Below, piece after piece: positions 119 through 59,747 of a stretch of 63,377 nucleotides of DNA (position 1 is the stretch's first letter; each line of letters opens with the position of its first letter). This stretch comes from an uncultured Muribaculaceae bacterium (GTDB lineage Bacteria > Bacillota_I > Bacilli_A > RF39 > UBA660). The translations under genes and the position numbers were made by a program. The notes under the pieces were generated by a model, which saw nothing but the letters and a program-made list of their open reading frames with translations, had not been told where the DNA came from and ran no database searches. The DNA lies in assembly GCA_964486215.1 (NCBI GenBank), contig CAZALI010000004.1:1-63377 (forward strand). Direction: 5' to 3'.

Positions 119-222
119 CTCGGTGACAATAGCTAGTGGGTCACACCTGTTCCCATCCCGAACACAGAAGTTAAGCCACTAAACGCTGACAATAGTGTAT
201 GCTAAGATAAGAAGTTGCCGAG
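119..222 (+). rRNA. rrf: 5S rRNA (short, about 104 nt)
   Basis: Contains the universal 5S core GTCACACCTGTTCCCATCCCGAACACAGAAGTTAAGCC. The terminal helix I pairs 5' CTCGGTGAC with 3' GTTGCCGAG. It sits directly after the 23S tail. Confidence 0.85.
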
Positions 223-259
223 ATTTTTTTATGCAATAATTTATTTTTATATAGAACAT

Positions 260-15664: not shown

Positions 15665-15684
15665 TTTGACTATTCTTTTTTTAT
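15657..15684 (+). terminator. Rho-independent terminator
   Basis: Stem AAGAATAG / CTATTCTT with a 5-nt loop and a T-run; overlaps the stop codon. Confidence 0.7.
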
Positions 15685-15701
15685 TAAAAGATACTAATAT
15701 A

Positions 15702-15710
15702 TGATATAAT
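15702..15710 (+). promoter_or_regulatory. Extended -10 promoter (TGATATAAT) of gatCAB
   Basis: Exact 9-mer, 26 nt upstream of the gatC start. Confidence 0.5.
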
Positions 15711-15735
15711 ATATTCAGTCCGAGGAGATGTTTTT

Positions 15736-16044
15736 ATGAAGGAAAAATTAACTAAAGAACAAGTTCTACATGTAGCTAATTTAGCTAGAATTAAAGTAGA
15801 TGAAAAAGAAATAGAAAAGTACCAAGTAGAGTTAAAACAATTACTAGATGACGTAGAAAAGATTACTGAAGTAGAAGACTATGATGAAGATATTATGATT
15901 GCTCCTTGGGATCATAATACTACTCTAAGAAAAGATGAAGAGAAAGATATGTTAGAAGCTAAAGAAGTATTAAAAAATGCTCCTCATCATAGTGGTAACT
16001 ATATAACAGTCCCAGTAGTAATTGGTGAAAGTGAAGGTGCTTAA
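15736..16044 (+). CDS. gatC: Asp/Glu-tRNA amidotransferase subunit C
   Basis: 102-aa protein with VLHVANLARIKV... typical of GatC; directly abuts gatA. Confidence 0.9.
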   Translation: MKEKLTKEQVLHVANLARIKVDEKEIEKYQVELKQLLDDVEKITEVEDYDEDIMIAPWDHNTTLRKDEEKDMLEAKEVLKNAPHHSGNYITVPVVIGESEGA

Positions 16045-22322: not shown

Positions 22323-24373
22323 ATGAAAAGAATAAAACTTAAATTAAAAAGATTTATAAATAAAACTAAATCTTCTCTACGTAGAATAAAAGAAGAAGAA
22401 CTAATTAAAAAATATTTTAAAGAAAATACTTTATTTTTAGTATTCATACTTATAAATGTAATAAATTCTACTATGTTAAGACTATTTTGTATGCATACTG
22501 TAGAGAATTTATTATCATTTAGAGCTATTATAGGAGATGCTTTAGTAGTAGTATTAATAGGATCATTTGGTTACTTATTAAAACCCAAGAATAGACCATA
22601 CTATTACTTTGGATTTACTTGTTTCTTCACAGCTATATGTACTATAAATTCTATTTATTATACATTCTATACGTCTTTTGCTTCTCTTTCTATGTTAGGC
22701 TTAGTTCAGTATATAGGAGATGTAGGAGATGCCGTTGTAGAAAATGTTTTCCAATTAAAAGATGTTGTTTATATGTTTGCTCCTATAACAATGTTATTAG
22801 TAAACAGAAAATTAGCTCATAAAAACTATTTTAAAAAAGTAGAAGTAAAATCAACTAGAAAGAAGAAGATGTTAACGTCATTGGGTATAGCTGGAGTATT
22901 AGCTATTATCTTCTTCGCAACTATGACTTCAGTTGATATCTCTCGTATTGTAAAACAGTGGAATAAAGAAAATATTGTTATGAGATGGGGTATATATATC
23001 TATCAAGGTAATGATATAATTGCTTCACTTCAACCAAAAATAAATTCTATGTTTGGTTATGATAGAGCTAAAATGAATTTCGAAGAGTACTTTAAAGCAA
23101 AAGAAAAACCAAAATCTAATGAATATACTAATATCTTTAAAGGAAAAAATATCTTAGTAATACATGCTGAGAGTATGATGACTAATGCTATGAGTTTAAA
23201 GTTCAACAATAAGGAAGTAACTCCTAACTTGAATAAGCTAGCGTCTGGCGGAATGTTCTTCTCTAATTTTTATTCTCAAGTAAGTGTAGGTACTTCGTCT
23301 GACAGTGAATTAACTTCTACTACGTCATTACTCCCAACAAAATCAGGCACAGCTTTTGTTTCATATGCAGATAGAACTTACTCATCTAGTATTTCATTAT
23401 TAGATGACATGGACTATTATACATTCGCTATGCATGCCAATAATGGTACATTCTGGAATAGAAAAATGATGCATAAGTCTTTAGGCTATAAGAGATTATA
23501 TGATAAGGCTGATTATGAGGTAACTAAAGAAACAACTATTGGACTAGGTTTAAGTGATAAAGAATTCTTTAAACAATCTATTCCAAAACTACAAAAGATT
23601 AATGAGAAACATAAGAATTGGTATGGCCTTATGATTATGTTATCTAATCATACACCATTCTCTGATGTTGAAAAATATGGAGATTTTGATGTTAATATAA
23701 AAGAAACAGTCACAAATCCTGATGGAATAACAACAGAAAAAGTATATCCATATATGGAAGGTAGAAAACTAGGTAATTACTTCAAATCTCTTCACTATGC
23801 TGATGAAGCATTAGGTGAATTTATGACAGAGTTAGATGAAGCTGGATTACTAAAAGATACAGTAGTTGTTCTATATGGAGATCATGATGCTAGACTTCCA
23901 AGAAAAGATTATAATTTACTATATAATTATGATAAAGAAAAAGATGAATTATTAGATGAAAATGATCCAAACTACAAGAATATGATAATTATAAGTATGA
24001 ATTAGGTAGAAAAGTACCATTTATTATCTGGACTAAAGATATGAAAGATACAGATCTAAATAAAGAGTACAAGAATGTCATGGGTATGTATGATGTAGTC
24101 CCAACTCTAGGTAATATGTTTGGTTTCTACAATAAATACTCTTTAGGACATGATATTTTTGATATAAAGAGTAATAATATTGTTGTATTTCCAAGTGGAA
24201 ACTGGCTAACAAATAAAGTATATTATAATTCTCAAAAAGGAGAAGCATATCCACTCACAACAGAAGCTATATCTCAAGAAGAAATAATATCTAATACTGA
24301 ATATACTAATAAATTATTAGATGTATCAAATGATATTATAGTATTTGATTTACTTAAGGAGGAAAAGAAATGA
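22323..24373 (+). pseudogene. LtaS-family (lipoteichoic acid synthase-like sulfatase) gene interrupted by a frameshift
   Basis: ORF 22323..24005 carries 5 TM segments and the sulfatase core (ILVIHAESMM, VGTSSDSEL, LSNHTPF, VLYGDHD). The missing C-terminal part (..YELGRKVPFIIWTKDMKDTD...) continues in another frame, which is open from 23966 and includes ORF 24041..24373. Confidence 0.75.
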
Positions 24374-27023: not shown

Positions 27024-27181
27024 TAATATTCCTCCATGCAAACATATATATTATATCAAAATAATCTCTTATTATCAAAATTAGTATAGTTATATTATAA
27101 ATGATTATCTAATAAATTAGAATGAACAAGTGCTAATTATTAAGTATTTACAGTAAAACAAGTAAAGAAAAAGAACTATCA

Positions 27182-27283
27182 CTAGTCCACTCTAGCTAAT
27201 TGAATAGCTCCATAGCTAGCTATATCATTAATATCACATGTAACATCATCTTTAATATTCATCTGACAATTAGGACATATCAT
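27182..27283 (-). CDS. Possible 33-aa small protein (MICPNCQMNIKDDVTCDINDIASYGAIQLARVD)
   Basis: Not in the ORF track because it is too short. ATG preceded by GGTGGTGA. CxxC plus one further Cys. Same strand as the LCP gene and 158 nt upstream of it. No other support. Confidence 0.25.
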   Translation of the reverse strand: MICPNCQMNIKDDVTCDINDIASYGAIQLARVD

Positions 27284-27354
27284 ATTATCACCACCATAAT
27301 CGTAACAGAATTCAAATTATATGAAAAGCATCTTTGTAAATATATAAATTACTA

Positions 27355-27371
27355 CGTAAAATAAATGTAAA
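27355..27371 (+). promoter_or_regulatory. WalR-like direct repeat (CGTAAA-N5-TGTAAA)
   Basis: One mismatch to the WalR/YycF consensus TGTWAH-N5-TGTWAH. It lies about 46 to 62 nt upstream of the autolysin -10 element. Further TGTAAA hexamers sit at 27335 and 27397. Confidence 0.3.
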
Positions 27372-27416
27372 AGTACATAAATTTACACAAACTAAATGTA
27401 AATTTGCATATATAAT

Positions 27417-27425
27417 TGATATAAT
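27417..27425 (+). promoter_or_regulatory. Extended -10 promoter (TGATATAAT) of the GH73 autolysin gene
   Basis: Exact 9-mer, 27 nt upstream of the GTG start and its AGGAGG SD. Confidence 0.5.
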
Positions 27426-27451
27426 ATAATTGACAATAAGGAGGTGTTAGT

Positions 27452-30400: not shown

Positions 30401-30958
30401 ATTGCTCGTCGTGGAGAAGATAATAATCATGGTTATAACTTTAAAGTACAACAGAGAAGTAGAACTAAATCTATTGAATTATCTATAAGAGATGAACTAT
30501 ACACAACAAGTACAGCACCTACAAGTAGAAATATGGTAAATGGTTACGATGAAATAAGCTTTAAAAACAATAAATTATACATGTATGCATATTCATATGA
30601 CTTTGATGTAGCTTATAATAATAACTTAGCTATCACAAGAAAAGTAATCTTTGAAAATACTACTACGTATGAACAAAGAGTATTTGATGTAGGATGTACA
30701 AGAGGACCATTTACTCTAGAAACTCTAGATAATAAAGATAAGACCTATGCATGGTATGAAAAAGAGCTAGATATATCAAATCTACCAATAGGTAATTACA
30801 ATGTACTAGTTTATACAAAGACAGCAAATGCCGCTAACTACGATGAATTAATTGATCTATCTAAACGTCTAAATAAAGAGACAACAATAGATGATAAGTC
30901 GTATAAAATAGCTGTTAATAAAGAAAGAAATAATAGAGTAGAGCTTACTATTAAGTAA
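27452..30958 (+). CDS. Secreted multidomain peptidoglycan hydrolase (GH73 N-acetylglucosaminidase, SH3-like region, 2 Ig-like domains, unassigned C-terminal module)
   Basis: Signal peptide. GH73 block YNAQQLHGANALLALSLSRNETGNGTS...NNGFGLNAVDS with the catalytic Glu context. Two 78-aa Ig-like repeats (PVINA...DxEDKDITNKI...VGxYxVxYxVTDS). GTG start preceded by AGGAGG. Confidence 0.85.
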   Translation: MKKLLLIAILIMSITINVKATSETNYSSRSVCSTFEVADATSSGGLTKVNCYTDFNTAKNAVKATTNTNRVILTKVGSKTRIIYANYGIVDFSYNPARTSNLYEASSLDTRQYTYLDTLDTSMATDGAFIDTAYSSSKKVYAAKVKFSGFTGWINTNEIEIVPLTWVKQTSYYTINSDIVHNFVNRPQMSPSGSSSRTIGPKPTMLSTGTYYSYDGHYFYTNRTNMLKDYKAGNYNNSVNKSNPYYNYYMYLSNHTKTNYSSINIDEYIRNVLGYTMDAYGKKAESKTSRLYGNGQFFYNAQQLHGANALLALSLSRNETGNGTSKLAVQKNNGFGLNAVDSNPYEEADWYASFPSSIMGFASHWITDLYANATKWHYFGPQYGNKAIGMNVKYASDIYWSEKMASFYYAFDKYNGLQDYNYYQLGIIKSPVAARSAAKTSAKKIYDYPEYEDAVVIVGEVAGESVGGSTTWYKVMSDVNIDSNYNAKSGNYNWTTYVYVPASYIQKINTPISGYKAPNSVPTYKDSNYTYDLLVENTNLKPRVAKSIKDTPFYYNSTLQTKTGKTLKNNRYVMVYAIAKEGSTIKSYLVTSDYFKDQKHWINADAITFVTSEYGKETVTTEANAYSWVNYNTEDVASTKISGKYTNSYFPILGTTKVGSNTWYKVPVDINGTEREFGYTLASAPDVSITKYKYTASNNPPVINASNKEIKVNTEFDPMNGVTATDVEDKDITNKITYTSTVNNKVVGTYKVTYKVTDSGNLTTTKEITVKVLSNDKPVINATDITIRQNSSFDPKAYATAYDTEDKDITNKIIVKENTVNTKVVGEYTVVYEVTDSDKNTTTKEVKVTVREVPHTDIENVNLDDYDERDGEFYLESLTWNNNTKKFTISGYLIVLNVNNIDKQYALVLKDKNSDKSYNIEIDSWLDNTPYDLGSENGKSYTESWFKGEIDLDITNGDYDLYMLGISDYDYTLQEVNNFFNKNIARRGEDNNHGYNFKVQQRSRTKSIELSIRDELYTTSTAPTSRNMVNGYDEISFKNNKLYMYAYSYDFDVAYNNNLAITRKVIFENTTTYEQRVFDVGCTRGPFTLETLDNKDKTYAWYEKELDISNLPIGNYNVLVYTKTANAANYDELIDLSKRLNKETTIDDKSYKIAVNKERNNRVELTIK
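29549..30006 (+). repeat. Two tandem 234-nt coding repeats (Ig-like domains) inside the autolysin
   Basis: PPVINASNKEIKVNTEFDP...TKEITVKV and KPVINATDITIRQNSSFDP...TKEVKVTV; they are divergent at the DNA level. Confidence 0.8.
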
Positions 30959-30970
30959 GCTCTTTTTATT
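30940..30970 (+). terminator. Rho-independent terminator of the autolysin gene
   Basis: 10-bp perfect stem AGAGCTTACT / AGTAAGCTCT with loop ATTA, then TTTTT; overlaps the stop codon. Confidence 0.8.
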
Positions 30971-30994: not shown

Positions 30995-31023
30995 TTGATT
31001 TTAAAACTATAGTTTGATAACAT
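30995..31023 (+). promoter_or_regulatory. Candidate promoter of the small hydrophobic peptide gene
   Basis: TTGATT (-35), a 17-bp spacer ending in TGA, and TAACAT (-10), that is TGnTAACAT. Predicted 5' UTR of about 60 nt. Confidence 0.4.
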
Positions 31024-31054
31024 AAACATTTGAACATTTAACTGTTGGGTGTCT

Positions 31055-31080
31055 ACCTCCTAAGTAAAAAGAGAGGAGGT
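31055..31080 (+). promoter_or_regulatory. 5' UTR hairpin sequestering the Shine-Dalgarno sequence
   Basis: ACCTCCT (31055..31061) is perfectly complementary to AGGAGGT (31074..31080), with a 12-nt loop. AGGAGGT is the SD, 8 nt upstream of ATG 31089. Confidence 0.5.
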
Positions 31081-31088
31081 TTGAGTAT

Positions 31089-31181
31089 ATGAAAAAACGC
31101 GAATATAGAATAAATATTCTCCGTTACTTATCACTCATTTTACTACTCATTACCTTACTGGTTTTAGTAATAAAAAAATGA
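31089..31181 (+). CDS. 30-aa hydrophobic peptide MKKREYRINILRYLSLILLLITLLVLVIKK (type I toxin-like)
   Basis: Not in the ORF track because it is too short. Strong GGAGG SD, a single TM helix with charged ends, and an isolated position between convergent genes. Confidence 0.45.
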   Translation: MKKREYRINILRYLSLILLLITLLVLVIKK

Positions 31182-31264
31182 CACTTAATTTCATAAGAAA
31201 TTAAATGTCTATCCAAAAAATCAGGTAGGCATTCAACAATAAGTTGAATGTTCCCACTAATTAA

Positions 31265-31293
31265 ATAATAACACAATATGTGTAATAAATCAA
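31265..31293 (-). promoter_or_regulatory. Candidate minus-strand promoter convergent on the small peptide gene (possible antisense RNA)
   Basis: On the minus strand: TTGATT (-35, overlapping the PASTA gene stop), a 17-bp spacer, and TGT-TATTAT (extended -10). Transcription would run through two hairpins (31252..31228 and 31204..31185) to a T-run that overlaps the peptide ORF 3' end. Confidence 0.3.
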
Positions 31294-49642: not shown

Positions 49643-49986
49643 TTAATAGATTATATATAACTGCTTTTGTAATAATAGTATTATTACTAATTATAATAAT
49701 TGATCTCCTAAAAAAAGGAAGAATACCTGTCAAATATGCTATAGCTTGGTGTTTTGCTTTAGTATTTGGATGCATATTACTAGCTATACCAAACTTATTA
49801 TCAACTATTTCTAAATTCTTAGGATTTGAATTACCATCTAATATGGTTTTAACAGTCTTTATACTATTACTATTCTTAATTACTATAGTATTAACTGTTA
49901 TGATAGCTGGTCAAAAGAAAAAGACTACTTTATTGATACAAGAAGTATCACTATTAAAAGAGCAATTACAAAAACAAAAAAAATAG
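49639..49986 (+). CDS. Small 4-TM membrane protein (DUF2304-like)
   Basis: 115 aa. LLKKGRIPVKYAIAW after TM1 and a C-terminal coiled tail. ATGA overlap with the upstream GT2. Confidence 0.7.
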   Translation: MINRLYITAFVIIVLLLIIIIDLLKKGRIPVKYAIAWCFALVFGCILLAIPNLLSTISKFLGFELPSNMVLTVFILLLFLITIVLTVMIAGQKKKTTLLIQEVSLLKEQLQKQKK

Positions 49987-49999
49987 ACAGGAGACTACT

Positions 50000-59386: not shown

Positions 59387-59416
59387 GAATATAGAAATAT
59401 ATTCTTTTTTATTTTT
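59385..59416 (+). terminator. Rho-independent terminator
   Basis: Stem AAGAATATA / TATATTCTT with loop GAAA and a T-run. Confidence 0.7.
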
Positions 59417-59417
59417 A

Positions 59418-59426
59418 TGATATAAT
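59418..59426 (+). promoter_or_regulatory. Extended -10 promoter (TGATATAAT)
   Basis: Exact 9-mer, 25 nt upstream of ATG 59451 (SD GGGAGG). Confidence 0.5.
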
Positions 59427-59450
59427 AGAAGTAATTTGGGAGGTATTTTT

Positions 59451-59747
59451 ATGGAGTTTATTTGTTTGTTTTTCCCAACTCTTATAGCTATGGGAAAAGA
59501 TATTAATACAAAGAATATTTATAAAGTAATATATGATTATGCTATGTATAATTTAAGTATTAATTTTATATCATTTTTAATAGTTAGAGTAGTTACTCAG
59601 TCACAATTAGTTATAGATAGTAACTTATGGACTATGAAATTTACTCTTAAATATATAATACTTAGTTCATTTATAGCTCTTATATTGCCAAAAGTAATAG
59701 AATTCTTAAAGAAGAATTTCTCTATATCTATAAAGAGGTCAAAATGA
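59451..59747 (+). CDS. Small 3-TM membrane protein (unknown), translationally coupled to the LtaS-family gene
   Basis: 98 aa. ATGA overlap with the next gene. Confidence 0.65.
   Translation: MEFICLFFPTLIAMGKDINTKNIYKVIYDYAMYNLSINFISFLIVRVVTQSQLVIDSNLWTMKFTLKYIILSSFIALILPKVIEFLKKNFSISIKRSK

Follow-up and report, generated by a model that had tools for sequence, protein, structure and literature searches.

A small membrane-peptide gene and a predicted convergent antisense RNA arranged like a type I toxin-antitoxin module in a low-GC Bacillota

We analysed a 63,377-nt stretch of DNA from an uncultured bacterium (assembly GCA_964486215.1, contig CAZALI010000004.1), hereafter the window, in which a 331-bp gap between two convergent genes, an autolysin-like gene on one side and a PASTA-repeat gene on the other, holds a small open reading frame (ORF) surrounded by the signals of a candidate type I toxin-antitoxin module (Table 1). 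The host is a low-GC Bacillota with sporulation genes, and the GC content of the window is 26.6%. The small ORF encodes MKKREYRINILRYLSLILLLITLLVLVIKK, a peptide of 30 residues with an N-terminal MKKR, about 20 hydrophobic residues, a C-terminal KK and one predicted transmembrane helix. Since the autolysin-like gene has a terminator of its own (30940-30963 followed by a T-run), the small ORF requires its own promoter, and since TGA serves as the stop in 8 of the 50 ORFs of the window, the end of the small ORF is real under code 11. An earlier note, made from the letters of this DNA, had proposed the ORF as the toxin gene of such a module, and the ORF is indeed present and conserved as coding.

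Table 1. Position of the genes, signals and RNA elements at the locus, followed by module copies at other loci.
Feature	Position	Strand	Remark
Autolysin-like gene, 1168 residues	27452..30958	+	Glucosaminidase and Ig-like domains
-35 box of the peptide mRNA, TTGATT	30995..31000	+	TTGnnn at the same position in the family
TG-extended -10 of the peptide mRNA, TGaTAACAT	31015..31023	+	17-nt spacer from the -35 box; predicted start at about 31030
Long-distance helix, 5' arm	31029..31058	+	Starts at the predicted +1; -35.5 kcal/mol; covariation
Predicted peptide mRNA, about 230 nt	31030..31260	+	Ends from family promoter and terminator positions; 3' end uncertain here
Anti-Shine-Dalgarno, ACCUCCU	31055..31061	+	ACC(U) shared with the long-distance helix
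Shine-Dalgarno, AGGAGGU	31074..31080	+	8 nt ahead of the ATG; GGAGG invariant in the 77-module alignment
30-codon ORF, putative membrane toxin	31089..31181	+	Encodes MKKREYRINILRYLSLILLLITLLVLVIKK; homologues, dN/dS
Antisense terminator	31172..31209	-	13-bp hairpin 31209..31180 and U7 31178..31172; overlaps the last ORF codons
Predicted antisense (antitoxin) RNA, about 87 nt	31172..31258	-	Two hairpins; consensus structure of 56 homologues
Long-distance helix, 3' arm	31223..31255	+	Local hairpin 31230-31250 is the mRNA terminator hairpin in typical members
Antisense promoter	31265..31293	-	TTGATT 31293..31288, 17-nt spacer, TGtTATTAT 31273..31265; family conservation
PASTA-repeat gene, 608 residues	31290..33116	-	Stop codon 31290-31292
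Second-subfamily copies	L044 2614-2882; L035 6382-6637; L128 3190-3445; L108 4224-4478; L041 1479-1731; L082 2021-2271		
Modules beside a tRNA gene (3' side)			L020, L031, L035, L042, L046, L052, L057, L070, L072, L076, L091, L093, L105, L113, L121, L128, L130

A phmmer search of 1.84 billion representative proteins returned one over-called ORF, with the C-terminus MKKREYNIRLLRYISLILLLLNLLVLVIKK, beside gerA genes, and a concatenated query of two variants added two more homologues, each in a complete module; peptide homologues that are about 80% identical occur in other genomic contexts. With a 21-22-nt pattern covering the end of the ORF and the terminator, this one 30-codon ORF leads to at least 120 metagenome loci. 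All family figures given hereafter (members, modules, flanks and truncations) are among the matches listed by that pattern scan, which after filtering gave 105 unique full-length regions, 79 of them with an intact ORF of about 30 residues and a Shine-Dalgarno (SD) sequence, and 77 distinct intact modules once trimmed to the transcribed part. Over 62 ORFs of 30 codons, the succession of MKKR, hydrophobic residues and KK is kept, dN/dS amounts to 0.31 in the ORF frame versus 0.74 and 1.66 in the shifted frames, and the entropies at codon positions 1, 2 and 3 are 0.68, 0.38 and 0.90, as judged from which the ORF is a gene under purifying selection. The consensus peptide reads M-K-K-R-x-F/Y-x-I-K-V/L-L-R/K-Y-I-S/T-I-I-L-L/F-L-L-I/T-I/L-M/L-I/V-x-V-I-K-K, its final four residues being set by the search pattern. 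A second subfamily, with peptides including MKKKDMLISSLIIIIFLLLFLLFIVLI and MTKKDFLIFSLIITIFLLILLLFVVLIKKKST, has the same RNA architecture with other arm sequences, and often stands in tandem with the first, usually 100-2000 nt apart.

None of ten peptide variants was found as such in a collection of 15 billion proteins, so that automatic annotation misses the whole family. Nor was there any match for the peptide in Pfam, NCBIfam, PHROGs or PADLOC, or for the peptide and the autolysin in exact look-ups, and the peptide motifs did not appear in any paper of the searched literature. For the module, Rfam gave no family at threshold on either strand, in its region of the window or at 7 loci, the matches at E <= 10 in that region being to unrelated families and at chance level. 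Searches of plasmid and phage collections with the peptide, with the window module and with a typical member yielded AT-rich chance matches or none, no meaningful phage match being found for either module, and pattern scans of viral contigs gave chance matches only.

In DNA of such low GC content, the promoters could be chance signals and the minus-strand hairpins nothing other than tandem terminators of the PASTA gene. Promoter-like sites do occur in the window at chance frequency, and both hairpins come shortly after the PASTA stop codon, each with a minus-strand T-run behind it. However, the whole arrangement is repeated in at least 77 distinct modules, with conservation of the ORF, the SD, the arms and the promoters and with covariation. 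Moreover, the downstream neighbour is co-directional in 35/95 cases, which means that the minus-strand elements are not its terminators. We thus find this reading barely credible and, in view of the family conservation, rejected PASTA terminators with chance promoters as the whole explanation; what survives of it is that PASTA read-through may end there. Such read-through would stop at the minus-strand hairpins and carry the antisense sequence.

The promoter and the other signals were judged real since they are conserved in at least 77 related modules in other genomic contexts. On the plus strand, 64/78 members have TTGnnn with a 17-nt spacer and 53/78 a TATAAT-like -10 with the TG extension; as the -10 most often precedes the GTCTACC of the 5' arm by 27 nt (37/78 members, range 22-29), transcription is expected to start at the first base of that arm. 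The minus promoter has a TG-extended -10 in all 69 members scored and the 17-nt spacer in 68 of them, with TATTAT as the -10 hexamer in 39/69 and TTGACA, TTGCAA or TTGAAA as the -35. It sits 33-35 nt past the 3' arm in 55 members, and 8-16 nt past it in a short variant that includes the window copy, whose antisense -35 box overlaps the PASTA stop codon. Both promoters had been pointed out in the earlier note, and both are at chance level when the window is taken alone: the one pointing at the ORF, on the minus strand, is borne out by this conservation, and the plus-strand one is found at a conserved position in the family.

The two minus-strand hairpins, with the T-run over the last codons that the same note had described, also recur in the family. 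The U-run of the antisense terminator is the complement of the AAAAAAA in the final lysine codons, and the minus-strand region with the two hairpins folds at -30.2 kcal/mol (z = -7.2). The upper stem of the terminator covaries (UA 52 / GC 25, UA 31 / CG 29 and CG 29 / AU 11), and in 75/77 members one of its pairs reads C.A when taken as plus-strand RNA but U.G as minus-strand RNA; judged by its pairs, the stem is fully paired on the minus strand only. The antisense 5' hairpin, of 5-6 bp, is predicted in 93% of the long-variant members versus 6% of shuffles and its stem sequences vary; as two stem classes are shifted against each other in the alignment and defeat a single column structure, the score comes from individual folds of the sequences. 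As for the mRNA, its terminator consists of the hairpin of the 3' arm followed by a strong plus-strand U-tract in 66/74 members (at least 6 T in 8 nt). In a scan of the window alone, terminator-like sites were above chance, with 4 found versus 0.2 expected. Note that a 50-codon ORF on the minus strand (31124..31276) extends beyond the antisense terminator.

The 5' and 3' arms form an inverted repeat, absent from the earlier note, that would give a 27-bp mRNA helix of -35.5 kcal/mol, when pairs of the same geometry across the window have a mean of -8.5 (sd 3.2, minimum -24.5, n=1705). This long-distance helix dominates the RNA fold of 31030-31260, which reaches -62.3 kcal/mol (z = -6.6). Throughout the family, each of its 27 pairs is paired in 92-98% of members and 10 vary on both sides, whereas sliding the partner by 1-3 columns as a control leaves 26-45% paired, and 0/500 shuffles reached a covariation as high as that observed. 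Compensatory pairs were found outside the alternative local hairpins as well, at 54/272 (UA 62, CG 8), 49/288 (GC 65, AU 6), 40/297 (GC 66, AU 4) and 52/277 (GC 65, AU 3). In the second subfamily, the long helices have energies of -27 to -39 kcal/mol versus -9 to -13 for shuffled sequences, and in two diverged copies a GGAGG-like stretch in the 3' arm pairs with the anti-SD. The pairing between anti-SD and SD, which the earlier note had seen in the predicted 5' leader, is paired at 94% in 77 members, with one-sided variation only because GGAGG is invariant.

Inverted arms that flank about 165 bp would also suit a dispersed non-autonomous repeat of the miniature inverted-repeat kind, with the arms as terminal inverted repeats and the ORF and promoters accidental. 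The copies do occur in numerous intergenic sites unrelated to one another, often directly behind a tRNA gene, two short-read contigs stop inside the module, and in distant relatives the corresponding gap measures 47 nt. Such a repeat would nevertheless leave unexplained why dN/dS is low in the ORF frame only and why both promoters, which lie outside the arms, are conserved. In addition, each of the four mismatches between the DNA arms becomes G.U in plus-strand RNA and would be A.C on the minus strand, which means that the constraint acts on the plus-strand RNA and not on the DNA. There is no second module copy within the 63-kb window either, and no transposase association was seen in the Pfam survey of flanking genes. 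On the strength of the coding selection and the strand-specific G.U pairs, we rejected the repeat reading as very unlikely.

Folding of the window copy suggests how the two helices of the candidate module may work together. In the minimum free energy fold of the full-length mRNA, the long helix is present and the SD and AUG are unpaired; when the long helix is forbidden (-51.0 kcal/mol), or when 31172-31258 is blocked to mimic the antisense RNA, a 5' hairpin and the full 7-bp ACCUCCU/AGGAGGU lock form instead and the AUG is paired. In 72 members, the median probability of an unpaired GGAGG is predicted at 0.005 for the nascent, 0.15 for the full-length and 0.009 for the antisense-bound mRNA, and the SD is more open in the full-length than in the antisense-bound form in 55 of them. 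We propose the following mechanism. A sigma-A-type promoter (30995-31023) would drive the mRNA of about 230 nt from about 31030, encoding the 30-residue one-helix peptide with basic ends, and the convergent promoter (31293-31265) a transcript of about 87 nt, from 31258 to about 31172, which as the antisense RNA would be fully complementary to the mRNA's 3' untranslated region. On the nascent mRNA, the 7-bp hairpin would form first, hide the ribosome-binding site and block translation. In the full-length mRNA, the 27-bp end-to-end helix would use part of the anti-SD, so that the SD and the AUG become at least partly free, and it may also shield both ends of the mRNA. By taking the 3' arm, the antisense RNA would break the long helix and let the lock re-form, and the mRNA/antisense duplex would probably be a substrate of RNase III. 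With covariation defining its RNA side unusually well, and with support for two promoters, two terminators, a lock and the 27-bp end-to-end helix, the module offers a concrete model of a three-state RNA switch.

The genomic behaviour of the modules bears on their autonomy. One contig matches the window at 100% over their overlap, the closest PASTA homologue is 71% identical on a contig that stops at the end of the gene, and a genome scan with the PASTA protein gave only relatives of at most 46% identity. The convergent PASTA/autolysin pair is kept in relatives at 46-48% identity (L002 5923-12916; L005 5001-10591), among which one has a gap of 47 nt with a single hairpin and another an aminopeptidase gene between the pair; since these gaps lack the module, it is not part of that locus. 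The PASTA protein itself is a membrane protein made solely of six PASTA repeats, with no kinase domain and a Cys-rich C-terminus. The closest flanking ORFs of the family members, 173 in all, make up 127 clusters; their Pfam families are mostly housekeeping (queuosine synthesis, SpoIVA, Dus, transketolase, ClpP, RuvB, DnaE and EF-Tu), and integrases and phage genes are not among the 25 most frequent. A tRNA gene lies within 600 nt in 19/126 modules, being directly downstream and convergent in 18, and the tRNAs found just past the antisense promoter are Leu, Arg, His, Ser, Gln, Thr or Glu. An insertion hot spot or the sharing of terminators could explain this placement after tRNA 3' ends.

At least two profile matches were found at 16 loci, of which about 13 hold at least two distinct copies within a few kb. 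Among the matches, 18 internal copies keep the 3' part but are missing the promoter, the 5' arm and the SD, and often the start codon too; 13 of the 18 retain a strong antisense promoter of the conserved type and 15 a TG-extended -10; no internal copy without its 3' part was found among the matches listed. Two remnants of the second subfamily with the 3' part only were found independently of the search pattern. Such an asymmetry between 5' and 3' truncation is, at the level of sequence, what a toxin with its antidote would produce. At four other loci (L107, L117, L083 and L090), the full peptide ORF with its ATG and the antisense gene are retained, and the promoter, 5' arm and SD are replaced by a terminator-like hairpin, GTAAAAAAATTAC, with a T-run. 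One 3'-only remnant of the second subfamily (L018 134-325) lies beside a tRNA-Leu gene with the hairpin AAGAACTTnnTACAAGTTCTT, and a near-copy of this hairpin (L018 1078-1102) follows an intact module 750 nt away; a duplication or rearrangement around the tRNA may have left this pair behind. Two independent short-read contigs end inside the antisense terminator hairpin, from opposite sides (L001 at about 31188 and L007 at about 31185), as would be expected if the assemblies broke at a sequence that those genomes hold more than once.

The peptide could instead be a harmless small membrane protein, such as a regulator or an accessory subunit, tuned by a cis-antisense RNA and by the structure of its mRNA. 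Purifying selection on the peptide would suit such a role, as would flanks made of chromosomal housekeeping genes and not of plasmid or phage genes; in addition, no toxin family was matched and the toxicity of the peptide is a prediction only. However, a functional partner predicts conserved neighbours, at odds with the diversity of the flanking clusters. Tandem paralogues, decayed copies and antisense-only copies are typical of toxin-antitoxin loci and not of accessory subunits, and three layers of translational control would be unusual for a harmless peptide. We therefore regard a non-toxic role as rather unlikely, while giving it some weight.

Altogether, we read the gap as a self-contained pair of genes of the type I toxin-antitoxin kind, a reading to which we assign a probability of about 0.75, its RNAs, the toxicity of the peptide and the direction of the switch being predicted. 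The type I toxin-antitoxin-like reading of the earlier note is thereby supported from comparative sequence analysis: the homologues place the ORF and hairpins in at least 77 modules, and not among AT-rich chance matches, and conservation extends over the coding ORF, both promoters, both terminators and the helices. The window copy is intact, with ORF, SD, lock, long helix, antisense promoter and antisense terminator. Several points weigh against this reading. First, what supports it for all members is sequence and folding, so that transcripts, toxicity and membrane location are predictions. Second, the window copy is at the weak end of the family: its -10, TAACAT, is weaker than the commonest family hexamers, only 3 T occur in the 8 nt after its mRNA terminator hairpin (66/74 members having at least 6), and the antisense 5' hairpin is missing. 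The window plus promoter scores 8/12, under the threshold of a single-sequence promoter scan that gave 5 sites versus 5.5 expected, which leaves the window alone at chance level. Third, transcripts of the PASTA gene, which has its end at 31290, could also be terminated by these minus-strand hairpins. Fourth, the SD of the open form is predicted to be unpaired just 15-30% of the time, the direction of the switch is a product of thermodynamic folding, and this direction is opposite to that of hok and aapA1. Finally, a search pattern placed at the ORF end and terminator fixes those columns and skews the count of truncated copies.

More tentatively, and with less than even odds in our estimation, the modules may form an undescribed type I family widespread in low-GC spore-forming Bacillota of the gut and rumen and invisible to gene callers, in which the 5'/3' pairing would act as an anti-anti-Shine-Dalgarno and the antitoxin would repress remotely through the 3' arm, and not by covering the ribosome-binding site. 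Should the peptide prove toxic, such modules may play a part in the persistence, genome stability or phage defence of anaerobes in the rumen and gut, and they may also account for some contig breaks in short-read assemblies. Elsewhere in the window, positions 119-223 (+) hold a 5S rRNA gene (Rfam RF00001, 72.5 bits), so close to the first letter that the window probably opens with the tail of an rRNA operon. Another five intergenic gaps, 357-410 nt long (15665-16044, 24006-24369, 27042-27451, 49643-49999 and 59387-59743), stand out in an otherwise tightly packed window and have no Rfam match at the gathering threshold.

When compared to known systems, the module would have the generic features of type I: a small hydrophobic peptide, a predicted antisense RNA gene and an mRNA fold predicted to sequester the SD. 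Its layout matches the one that T1TAdb describes for Gram-positive families, where the 3' part of the mRNA and the last stretch of the ORF lie within the overlap with the antisense RNA (PMC8594479). The closest layouts in Bacillus subtilis are bsrG/SR4 and txpA/RatA (also bsrE/SR5 and yonT/SR6), which are alike in their small hydrophobic peptide and convergent, 3'-overlapping antisense RNA. SR4 pairs with the bsrG mRNA at its 3' end, speeds up the decay of this mRNA and makes a structure around the SD tighter, which is close to the allosteric lock predicted in the window module. The earlier note had likened the antisense arrangement to these pairs, and this holds for the layout, with the RNA here being predicted, and not for homology: 0/8 peptides match the TxpA/BsrG family (PF16935, Hol_Tox) at E <= 10, when the control TxpA and BsrG sequences match it at 1e-7 to 1e-8, and no RatA- or SR4-type antitoxin was matched in Rfam. 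Most B. subtilis type I toxins are reported to lie in prophage regions, whereas the modules here are found among housekeeping genes. To our knowledge, mRNAs of the bsrG/txpA type have not been described as having a 27-bp helix that joins their 5' and 3' ends.

Pairing between the two ends of the mRNA is instead known from hok/Sok of plasmid R1 and aapA1/IsoA1 of Helicobacter pylori, in which successive structures block co-transcriptional translation (PMC8594479, PMC6733600). The module shares this 5'/3' pairing, backed here by covariation, and differs in that the antisense RNA lies in the 5' part of the mRNA in hok/Sok and aapA1/IsoA1 and would target the 3' arm here. In hok and aapA1, the mRNA stays inert through the long-distance pairing up to the processing of its 3' end, whereas here the pairing is predicted to open the SD. 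Their hosts are Gram-negative and their peptides unrelated, with no Pfam match to HOK_GEF here.

The par locus of Enterococcus faecalis pAD1 (fst/RNA II, Fst/Ldr family) is alike in its convergent genes meeting at a terminator, its peptide of about 30 residues and its translation-limiting 5' structure. The peptides here have no match to Fst/Ldr (PF13955), which the control Fst and PepA1 sequences match at about 1e-5. A two-way terminator is shared in Fst/Ldr, whereas the hairpin here is fully paired on the minus strand only and the mRNA has its own terminator further downstream. The Fst mRNA and RNA II interact outside their overlap, at 5' repeats (PMC8594479), unlike the module here, whose RNA interaction would lie within the overlap. 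In Clostridioides difficile, CD0956.2/RCd10 and CD2517.1/RCd8, among others, are convergent overlapping genes whose toxins have a transmembrane helix and a lysine-rich C-terminus (PMC6563280). They share with the module an anaerobic spore-forming Bacillota host, the convergent layout and this peptide plan, and we set them apart by size and location: those toxins have 34-59 residues and lie in prophages or by CRISPR arrays, whereas the peptide here has 30 residues and lies among housekeeping genes. The Fst/TxpA/BsrG-type peptide of the earlier note therefore stands as a likeness of architecture and not of sequence, and the resemblance to TxpA/BsrG and Fst is, as far as the comparisons go, one of architecture and not of family membership. 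Since the layout matches in the absence of peptide and RNA homology, the module appears to be of the type I kind without fitting any named family, and its sequences argue for a new family within the type I toxin-antitoxin kind.

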